57,908 nt of DNA from a virus (taxonomy: Duplodnaviria; Caudoviricetes). The stretch is from IMG/VR virus record IMGVR_UViG_3300033148_002172, positions 1-57,908 of that record, one strand, 5' to 3'. Below the pieces are notes generated by a model. It was not told the DNA's origin. It did not search any database and was given only the letters and a program-made list of their open reading frames with translations. Shown here one piece after another: positions 17,650 to 18,151 of the stretch (within the stretch, counting starts at the first letter, position 1; each line of letters begins with the position of its first letter). The translations under genes and the position numbers were made by a program.

Positions 17650-17808
17650 CGGTCCTCCTTTACAGGCTTCATTGCCTGAAGTAGAGAGTCAAGAGCTACT
17701 GGCCAGTACCGTCCACAGTTTACCGTCCACAGTTCTAAGAGGAGCTAACTCCCGTATGCTGTAAACATCGCCCGATGCGGCGTCGTCCAAGGGCTTACCC
17801 TTGACTCT

Positions 17809-17868
17809 CTACTTCAGGGAATAAATCCCTTACCTTATTCCCTACTGCAGGGAATAAATCCCTTACCT
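17809..17868. repeat. Two copies of a 27-bp direct repeat CTACT(T/G)CAGGGAATAAATCCCTTACCT, period 33
   Basis: Copies at 17809-17835 and 17842-17868, one mismatch. Confidence 0.9.
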
Positions 17869-17870
17869 CC

Positions 17871-18107
17871 TTAATTATGTTTAGCCTTCGCCAAATGATA
17901 TAGTAACTTCTCTGTGGCGAGCAATTGCTCGCTACGCGCTGGCCCGCGCTCGGCGGCGATGAGGTCTTGAAGCTCCCTAACCATGTCCAGGGCTTCATCA
18001 ATCTCTTCTTTCTTCTTCCATACCTTATCCCAAATCCTTAGGTTATCGGTGTGAGCGGCTTCGAAGCTGACCATTTTAACCCCATCTATTATTTGTACAG
18101 AACCCAT
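17871..18107 (-). CDS. Hypothetical early protein (starts MGSVQ)
   Basis: 78-aa ORF with AAAGGAGG RBS and shared hairpin leader. Confidence 0.65.
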   Translation of the reverse strand: MGSVQIIDGVKMVSFEAAHTDNLRIWDKVWKKKEEIDEALDMVRELQDLIAAERGPARSEQLLATEKLLYHLAKAKHN

Positions 18108-18151
18108 AGGTTCCTCCTTTACTGGCTTTATTGCCTGCAGTAGGGAATAAG

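Follow-up and report, generated by a model that had tools for sequence, protein, structure and literature searches.

The first two genes at the head of the leftward early arm of this phage genome are framed by two pairs of inverted repeats, in which the leader of each gene is matched exactly, over 18 or 19 nucleotides, by its own unit in a small tandem hub lying between the genes. Judged from its sequence, the locus is a real, non-random, conserved and unusual cis-element with a putative functional role. Tentatively, and with rather less than even confidence, we take the units to be the arms of long-range RNA duplexes that would form in cis in the leftward early mRNA and act as RNase III-type processing or stability stems, derived from a portable leader cassette.

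The DNA analysed, referred to here as the window, is the entire virus record (positions 1-57,908), which is linear and complete, with an estimated completeness of 99%. Its genes form two divergent arms, with minus-strand genes up to 18107 and plus-strand genes from 20153, separated by a gene-poor control region of about 2 kb. The leftward (minus-strand) arm encodes a family-A DNA polymerase, a PD-(D/E)XK nuclease, a DUF5906 primase/helicase-like protein and many small ORFans. Conserved sigma-54-type promoter matches occur in the early arm of this lineage. The plus-strand arm encodes the terminase, an SU10-like portal and adaptor, and a 2467-aa protein with two HExxH motifs; this last protein was considered as a virion RNA polymerase and rejected, as it has no DxDxD motif and no PDB or PHROG match. 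The terminase is only about 21% identical to those of cultured phages, and no DNA match to the record was found in the phage collection. The repeats are located around the first two leftward genes, which encode ORFans of 78 and 90 amino acids.

The original prediction held that the two hub units are exact reverse complements of the two leaders, and this is the case: 17800-17818 matches 17675-17693 at 19/19 positions, and 17834-17851 matches 18134-18151 at 18/18. The arms are in fact longer than claimed, extending imperfectly to 29 nt at 90% for the pair that we call stem A and to 28 nt at 93% for stem B. The constant segment said to follow each unit, the 17-mer GAATAAATCCCTTACCT, is present in exactly two copies in the window, at 17819-17835 and 17852-17868, and all four copies of the motif CTACTNCAGGSAATRAA in the record fall at this locus (the reversed-pattern control gave 0). 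Genome-wide, there are seven exact inverted 16-mer matches within 600 nt, all of them derived from these two pairs, and only 3 of 200 simulated first-order Markov genomes contained any exact inverted repeat of at least 16 nt within 600 nt. The pairs are also the two best inverted repeats within 1.5 kb across the genome. A chance origin of the repeats is excluded. Local misassembly, which had been raised as a possible objection, is contradicted by independent public contigs of other runs, in which the leaders and the hub follow one another as they do in the window; the contigs crossing a repeat collinearly with the window are X3 record 4, X2 record 3 and X5 record 10.

Reading in the direction of the leftward genes, the last terminator-like site upstream of the leaders is a hairpin with a U-rich tail at 18647-18672 (minus strand), identified by consensus match only. 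A strong hairpin at 18148-18197 (minus strand; -31.5 kcal/mol, z -6.4) then adjoins the 5' end of stem B, the 5' arm of which (18124-18151, minus strand) includes leader unit b (18134-18151, minus strand; 18 nt), the head of the leader of the 78-aa gene. This leader cassette, L2 (18092-18151, minus strand), comprises unit b, a small hairpin, the Shine-Dalgarno sequence AAAGGAGG, the ATG and the first codons (MGSVQ). The 78-aa reading frame (17871-18107, minus strand) lies wholly within stem B, which encloses 262 nt. Beyond it is the hub, both units of which are written on the plus strand: hub unit 2 (17834-17868), with core b' at 17834-17851 and the constant tail at 17852-17868, and hub unit 1 (17800-17835), with core a' at 17800-17818 and the constant tail at 17819-17835. 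On minus-strand RNA, the complement of hub unit 2 is predicted to be the 3' arm of stem B and that of hub unit 1 the 5' arm of stem A. A predicted six-pair hairpin, CAAGGG-CTTA-CCCTTG (17788-17803, no strand assigned), overlaps the first 4 nt of hub unit 1 and is predicted to compete with stem A; it belongs to a block conserved in a relative, run X3. The loop of stem A (17694-17799, minus strand) is 106 nt long, is non-coding and holds a 14-nt tandem repeat at 17707-17734. A 33-aa open reading frame in this spacer (17689-17790) was rejected, as scattered single-base gaps occur there in the relative. Leader unit a (17675-17693, minus strand; 19 nt) heads the leader of the 90-aa gene, and the 3' arm of stem A extends on the same strand to 17665. 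Cassette L1 (17634-17693, minus strand) comprises unit a, the hairpin CAGGC-AATGAA-GCCTG, the Shine-Dalgarno sequence, the ATG and the first codons (MGSTQ), and it is followed by the 90-aa reading frame (17377-17649, minus strand).

When each is read 5' to 3' in its own sense, all four units prove to be copies of one module, consisting of a core followed by a five-pair hairpin. The two sense copies continue into the Shine-Dalgarno sequence, the ATG and the first codons (MGS), giving a direct repeat of about 60 nt (L1 and L2) that heads two unrelated genes, with constant spacing from unit to Shine-Dalgarno sequence to ATG in both. The two inverted copies end after the hairpin and together form a 33-nt tandem. 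On this pattern the leader reads as a portable module. The cores are 100% identical within each pair and match at 15/19 positions between pairs; the T/G variant base singled out in the original prediction does match its own partner, as do the other differences between the two classes. The next 17 nt group differently: the two hub units agree at 17/17 positions and the two leaders at 15/17, whereas a hub unit and a leader share only 9-10/17. Cores thus group by partner and tails by location, and with this chimeric grouping the two pairs differ by compensated changes: the three substitutions and one indel that separate the two core classes are all matched in the partners. Such a grouping would require that pairing partners co-evolved by compensation, that gene conversion acted in short patches between the inverted copies, or that two separate copying events were followed by homogenisation of the tails. 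As the compensation is seen only between paralogous pairs, two copying events or gene conversion could also have produced it.

The tails bear on the matter in another way. Hub tails differ from leader tails at stem positions, such that the register of the local five-pair hairpin is shifted and the hairpin is kept, while the same differences break the long-range helix beyond its 18-19 pairs. This points to a role for the local hairpin, or for the DNA sequence as such, and counts against RNA stems. The competing local hairpin TTATTCCCT/AGGGAATAA, which had been pointed out earlier, is indeed predicted by folding. Unit b, moreover, is a dyad of the form 9-N5-9, and four of the five exact AGGGAATAA half-sites of the window cluster here.

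To assess conservation, contigs from 4 of the 15 listed runs were compared with 17300-18700. The clearest case is a single 2995-nt contig of run X3. Over 17438-17604 it shows 22 differences in 167 nt (approximately 13% divergence), and exactly at the junction between leader 1 and its gene, 305 other letters replace the 48 nt of 17605-17652. Across 17653-17933 there are 26 differences plus 12 gap letters. Of these differences 25 are listed, 21 in 17711-17769 and four in 17889-17903, and the listed gaps all fall in 17723-17767; the difference table apparently omits changes within about 30 nt of the end of a piece, and the one remaining X3 difference cannot be placed. No listed difference falls in 17770-17888, which covers the hub, its flanking hairpin and the last codons of the 78-aa gene, and leader 1 (17653-17710) holds at most the one unlisted difference. 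The binomial probability of so few changes in these 177 nt against a 13% background is about 4e-10. In a close strain, run X1, a contig has 14 gap letters somewhere across 17645-17809, a number that equals the length of a single copy of the loop's 14-nt tandem repeat. Conserved arms beside a loop that is free to vary argue for function, and against either a neutral relic or a single recent exchange. As the stem positions seen in X3 are unchanged, covariation between genomes is absent, with one relative covering the stems. The compensatory changes that the original prediction proposed to look for are seen between the two paralogous pairs and not between genomes.

These comparisons bear directly on the view that the inverted copies are functionless relics of cassette shuffling, in which case the hub would consist of two leaders cut short, either remnants of opposite-strand cassettes that were lost or products of template switching, with gene conversion between inverted repeats maintaining their identity to their neighbours. 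The module is evidently portable, as the same stretch of about 60 nt, first codons included, heads two unrelated genes. Among four homologs of the 90-aa protein, one starts MGSTQ, two start MQTE without MGS, and one has another upstream sequence; the exchange of 48 nt for 305 in X3 is likewise located at the leader/gene junction. Recombination at repeated regulatory cassettes is documented in T4-type phages (PMC2839356, PMC4122927). However, neutral copies should diverge like the loop, and in X3 the hub and leader 1 are unchanged where the loop is scrambled. Conserved blocks also flank the hypervariable stretch on both sides, so a single recent exchange is inadequate, and we consider the relic explanation unlikely.

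More distant relatives were few. A search of IMG/VR through the terminase yielded four loci, only one of which (L014) reaches the early region. Its terminase is 88% identical, and its early genes are different and without the unit; the first of them has a strong local hairpin over its Shine-Dalgarno sequence, with 27-nt arms and a z-score of -5.85, the 5' arm of which has weak similarity to the unit. A long RNA helix in this part of the leader seems, from the predicted folds, to be a theme shared with L014. Scans of sequence collections with the leader, hub and conserved-core DNA patterns found no further relatives. Seven pattern matches in IMG/VR were treated as chance: each is a lone copy in an unrelated AT-rich context and lacks an inverted partner.

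The preferred reading, pairing in cis on the early RNA, is in accord with predicted energies. Cognate duplexes are predicted at -37.9 and -39.2 kcal/mol versus -20.5 and -22.5 kcal/mol for the cross pairs, a gain of about 17 kcal/mol. Both stems are found in the minimum-energy and centroid folds of minus-strand RNA from 18200 to 17630 (z -7.8), where they bracket the 78-aa gene and the 106-nt insert as had been proposed. In the minimum-energy fold they adjoin the 18148-18197 hairpin, and a nearly continuous rod is predicted. The predicted helices, of 28 and 29 pairs with 18-19 perfect pairs, are longer than the roughly 20 bp asked of an RNase III-type helix, and near-perfect duplexes of such a length, 28-29 pairs, are of a kind cleaved by bacterial RNase III. 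The opposite (plus) strand is predicted to fold just as well (z -8.1), and among the mismatches beyond the cores, those of the transition type would give four G-U pairs on minus-strand RNA and two on the plus strand; neither the fold z-scores nor this wobble tally decides which strand acts. Searching Rfam gave two sub-threshold chance matches only.

An effect of the hub on translation initiation finds less encouragement in the folds. For the 78-aa gene, the mean unpaired probability of the Shine-Dalgarno sequence goes from 0.58 or 0.56 when the hub is left out to 0.67 when it is present. The corresponding values for the 90-aa gene are 0.22 or 0.17 in the absence of the hub, 0.11 if hub unit 1 alone is included and 0.41 if the hub is complete. 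In both leaders, and in every context tested, the 3' half of the Shine-Dalgarno sequence is predicted to pair with codons 2-3, placing the AUG in a tetraloop. The isolated leader folds are not unusual (z -1.4 and -0.9), and the hub alone forms stable local hairpins (z -3.0). As predicted Shine-Dalgarno accessibility barely changes with the hub, a simple unmasking switch is not supported, and the translational switch of the original prediction was not borne out.

For both pairs, the two partners fall within a single run of genes on the same strand, and no terminator-like site is found between 18647 and 17000; the hairpins adjacent to the units have no T run and were not reported as terminators by the scan. 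With one same-strand run and no terminator-like site after 18647, the early RNA should hold each leader together with its complement. The steps that may follow can be set out thus: of the four copies of the portable leader module, the two sense copies would head the 78-aa and 90-aa genes and the two partial, inverted copies would stand in tandem between them; leader 2 would pair with the complement of hub unit 2 to form stem B, enclosing the 78-aa gene; the complement of hub unit 1 would pair with leader 1 to form stem A, enclosing the 106-nt loop that is free to vary; and the resulting near-perfect helices of 28-29 bp would be substrates of host RNase III, clamps protecting the RNA ends, or both. 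A six-frame search found no RNase III in the phage. A cut in stem B would free the message for the 78-aa protein with its ends paired, and a cut in stem A would remove the loop and leave the 90-aa message with a leader that is short and defined. Either way, the polycistronic early RNA might be divided into defined units, which would set the stability and yield of the two genes.

We take the identity specific to each pair, the compensated differences between classes and the conserved arms around a variable loop as the best-supported signs that selection acts on pairing, and a duplex in cis on RNA would be its simplest form. The part of the original prediction that fits these observations is the bracketing stems on the early mRNA, favoured by the same-strand run, the cognate energies, the compensated changes and the conserved arms; its switch, recombination-site and guide-RNA parts found no such support. 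Protein-binding DNA sites would account for the conservation of the units just as well, which counts against the RNA-stem reading.

The main rival is one in which the units are DNA sites, that is, promoters or operators for host RNA polymerase and a phage factor. The sense copies would then drive or control the two genes, and the inverted copies would be convergent antisense promoters or looping operators. Several features are consistent with this: the constant spacing from unit to Shine-Dalgarno sequence to ATG in both leaders; the terminator-like hairpin at 18647-18672, with no promoter recognised between it and leader 2; the hairpins that flank every unit, as in the stem-loop/promoter cassettes of T4-type phages (PMC2839356); the 9-N5-9 dyad of unit b with its clustered half-sites; the perfect conservation in X3, as expected of a protein site; and the hub tails, which keep the local hairpin and lose the long-range complementarity. 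However, a consensus scan of 17000-18200 found no sigma-70-like promoter and no terminator, and no sigma-54-like match occurs in the same interval. No phage RNA polymerase was found, either among the Pfam matches of 46 ORFs or in a six-frame search for T7-type enzymes, the latter being weak as its control was silent. Four motif copies all within 480 bp would make an odd regulon, a DNA-binding fold could not be recognised in the modelled structures of the two proteins next to the units, and the exact match of each inverted copy to its own neighbour goes unexplained if the units are DNA sites. Taken together, these points leave the DNA-site reading rather improbable, if less so than the other rivals.

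Inverted repeats of this kind might also be DNA recombination sites, making the 106-nt spacer and the 78-aa gene invertible segments or the repeats the ends of a mobile element, as the original prediction had in part suggested. Two segments are flanked by inverted repeats of 28-29 nt that are conserved in the relative, and in Hin/Gin/Fim-type invertons, too, inverted repeats of 20-30 nt flank a short segment. Unlike those systems, this locus has no recombinase that could be found and a single orientation in public contigs. Six-frame searches with the Resolvase and Phage_integrase families, in which the controls rang, detected no serine or tyrosine recombinase, and Pfam matched no recombinase, transposase or Cas-family protein among the 46 ORFs; a host enzyme could still act. 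No direct repeats or target-site duplication were seen flanking the arms, and the only unit copies in the genome are the four here. Neither a strand-changing joint nor an inverted form of either bracketed segment occurs among the contigs of the four runs, in which rare forms may be hidden or dropped, and inversion would turn the 78-aa gene against the direction of its operon. We regard recombination sites as very improbable. A miniature transposable element was rejected as well, given the absence of a target-site duplication and of copies beyond these four.

Pairing need not be confined to one molecule. The hub could be excised as a small RNA of two modules, each with a constant hairpin and an 18-19-nt leader complement, acting in trans as an antisense regulator of leader-bearing mRNAs. 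Its layout of repeats and variable segments with a 33-nt period, the specificity of each variable segment for one leader and the stable folding of the hub alone fit this idea, and a low-depth 145-nt contig of X3 carries a hub-like piece of 37 nt, with the rest of the contig lying off this stretch. On the other hand, the cis partners are only 106 and 262 nt away on the same RNA, so pairing in cis should win, no associated protein was found, and there are just two modules in one genome lineage; a trans-acting hub RNA is quite doubtful. As to the guide-like RNAs envisaged in the original prediction, the complement of the hub would be no more than a stretch of that one early transcript, and the novel system suggested there stays conjectural, no dedicated protein being linked to the repeats. 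A CRISPR-like mini-array was rejected, there being only two 17-nt "repeats", no Cas-family match in the 46 ORFs and nothing in Rfam.

A bolder version, which we rate as a similarly long shot, is an address-coded RNA switch in which the leaders would carry 18-19-nt "addresses" and the hub the matching "anti-addresses" on a constant hairpin scaffold. If this were true, a hub RNA, once released, would locate both leaders, whether in cis or in trans, and would set the timing of their genes or silence them. Each hub unit would evolve together with its leader, and the result would be a small self-targeting guide system, encoded by a lytic phage and independent of any dedicated protein.

To return to stems acting in cis, the closest parallels in how they would work appear to be the RNase III sites of phage T7 and the processing stems of rRNA. 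The early genes of T7 are separated by RNase III sites, which are local hairpins, while 16S and 23S rRNA are each bracketed by long-range processing stems, the arms of which are hundreds of nucleotides apart and enclose the whole product. As in both, helices of at least two turns are predicted here at gene boundaries in a polycistronic transcript, and as in rRNA, widely spaced arms enclose an entire product, the 78-aa gene in the case of stem B. The stems differ from T7 sites in not being local hairpins and from rRNA stems in enclosing an mRNA rather than a structural RNA. They differ from both in that a 5' arm doubles as a gene leader and that the two stems share a tandem hub, cleavage being putative here. 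The fold-back (fbi) of hok mRNA in the hok/sok system, in which the 5' and 3' ends pair and hok is a membrane toxin under antisense RNA control, offers a further likeness, as the 5' leader pairs just past the stop codon of a small gene and encloses the whole reading frame. Unlike hok, the 78-aa protein is modelled as soluble and helical, no antisense RNA is known, and the predicted pairing is much longer.

In how the locus may have evolved, the closest parallel would be the PeSL cassettes of T4-type phages (PMC2839356, PMC4122927), modules of stem-loop and promoter that recur beside ORFans and through which these are exchanged. Short composite stem-loop repeats flank small early ORFans in both cases, and the X3 contig shows replacement at a cassette boundary of the kind described there. 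PeSL elements combine a sigma-70 promoter with a terminator stem-loop in the gene direction, whereas neither promoter nor terminator was detected here; this cassette also carries a ribosome site and first codons, and two of its copies are inverted and partner-specific. For these reasons identity with PeSL was rejected.

In a limited full-text literature collection, neither leader-complementary repeats nor long-range RNase III stems in phage early mRNA were found described. What is new here is the grouping of cores by partner and tails by location, and the conservation of the arms beside a scrambled loop in a relative that has diverged by about 13%. If the stems act on RNA, the locus would be a compact natural example in which long-range mRNA pairing is partner-specific and spans an entire phage gene; it would be built from a mobile leader module, it would link the shuffling of regulatory cassettes to RNA structure, and it would extend T7-style RNase III processing from local hairpins to rRNA-like bracketing of mRNA. 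If the units are instead DNA sites, they would point to an unrecognised class of promoter or operator in a phage lineage without a cultured relative. The two paralogous pairs provide a ready-made test of pairing specificity, in which arms can be swapped or broken.

The two enclosed or adjoining genes gave few clues of their own. Neither Pfam nor PHROGs contained a family for the 78-aa or the 90-aa protein, alignments of the two in viral, metagenome and genome collections found nothing, and a search for relatives with the neighbouring 201-aa protein was equally unproductive. No usable function or recognisable DNA-binding fold emerged when models of both were searched against PDB folds and a protein atlas, and the 90-aa model had no significant fold match. 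The 78-aa protein is predicted to consist of a beta-hairpin and two long helices. It has two homologs, 75-79% identical, with an in-frame 6-aa indel. One of them, P0002, has been called with an N-terminal extension that reads through the leader: the 14 residues ahead of the start agree completely with the window's leader translated in the same frame, while residues further upstream differ. Leader 2 is thus probably conserved in the genome of P0002 as well.

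In both leaders, at 18100-18120 (minus strand) in L2 of the 78-aa ORFan and at 17642-17661 (minus strand) in L1 of the 90-aa ORFan, the 3' half of the Shine-Dalgarno sequence is predicted to pair with codons 2-3 (GGU UCU), and the AUG lies within the 4-nt loop of this pairing. Such pairing could account for the MGS start common to these two unrelated proteins. In L014, a distant IMG/VR relative with other early genes, a strong hairpin with 27-nt arms (1904-1959; -30.3 kcal/mol, z -5.85) encloses the Shine-Dalgarno sequence of the first early gene. The loop of stem A, the predicted long-range duplex between leader 1 and hub unit 1, holds an exact 14-nt tandem repeat (17707-17734); between 17645 and 17809, a close-strain contig from sequencing run X1 has 14 gap letters, equal in length to a single copy of the repeat.

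Upstream of the early arm, two matches to the sigma-54 -24/-12 consensus (19471-19486 and 19046-19061, minus strand), one of them perfect and the other mismatched at a single position, point toward the early genes. L014 again carries one perfect and one single-mismatch site facing its early arm (3082-3097 and 2730-2745, minus strand). All four are no more than matches to the consensus, and an activator gene to go with them was not seen. Downstream of the second site in the window lies a 61-aa ORF (18780-18965, minus strand) whose Shine-Dalgarno sequence is strong. Its end includes two exact 25-nt tandem repeats (18775-18824), and a terminator-like hairpin (18647-18672, minus strand) comes after the ORF. 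By eye, a small protein resembling the ORF's product is encoded at the matching place in L014. A non-coding core (~18240-18400 in the window, ~2040-2200 in L014) is well conserved despite the different early genes alongside, and it had no match in Rfam.

At 20118-20155, the first rightward gene is headed by a sigma-70-like promoter (TTGCCT, 17 nt, TG-n-TATAGT). As this promoter ends 6 nt upstream of the ATG, the mRNA of this gene is suggested to be leaderless. The same promoter/ATG arrangement appears by eye to be retained in L014 (~3790-3836).

Elsewhere in the window, the 2467-aa rightward-arm protein (41390-48793) matched nothing in PDB and PHROG searches and lacks a DxDxD motif; it carries two HExxH motifs, at residues 587 and 1215. 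An exact inverted repeat of 14 nt, separated by a short loop (7035-7071), lies in the nuclease gene close to where that gene begins to overlap the primase/helicase-like gene.
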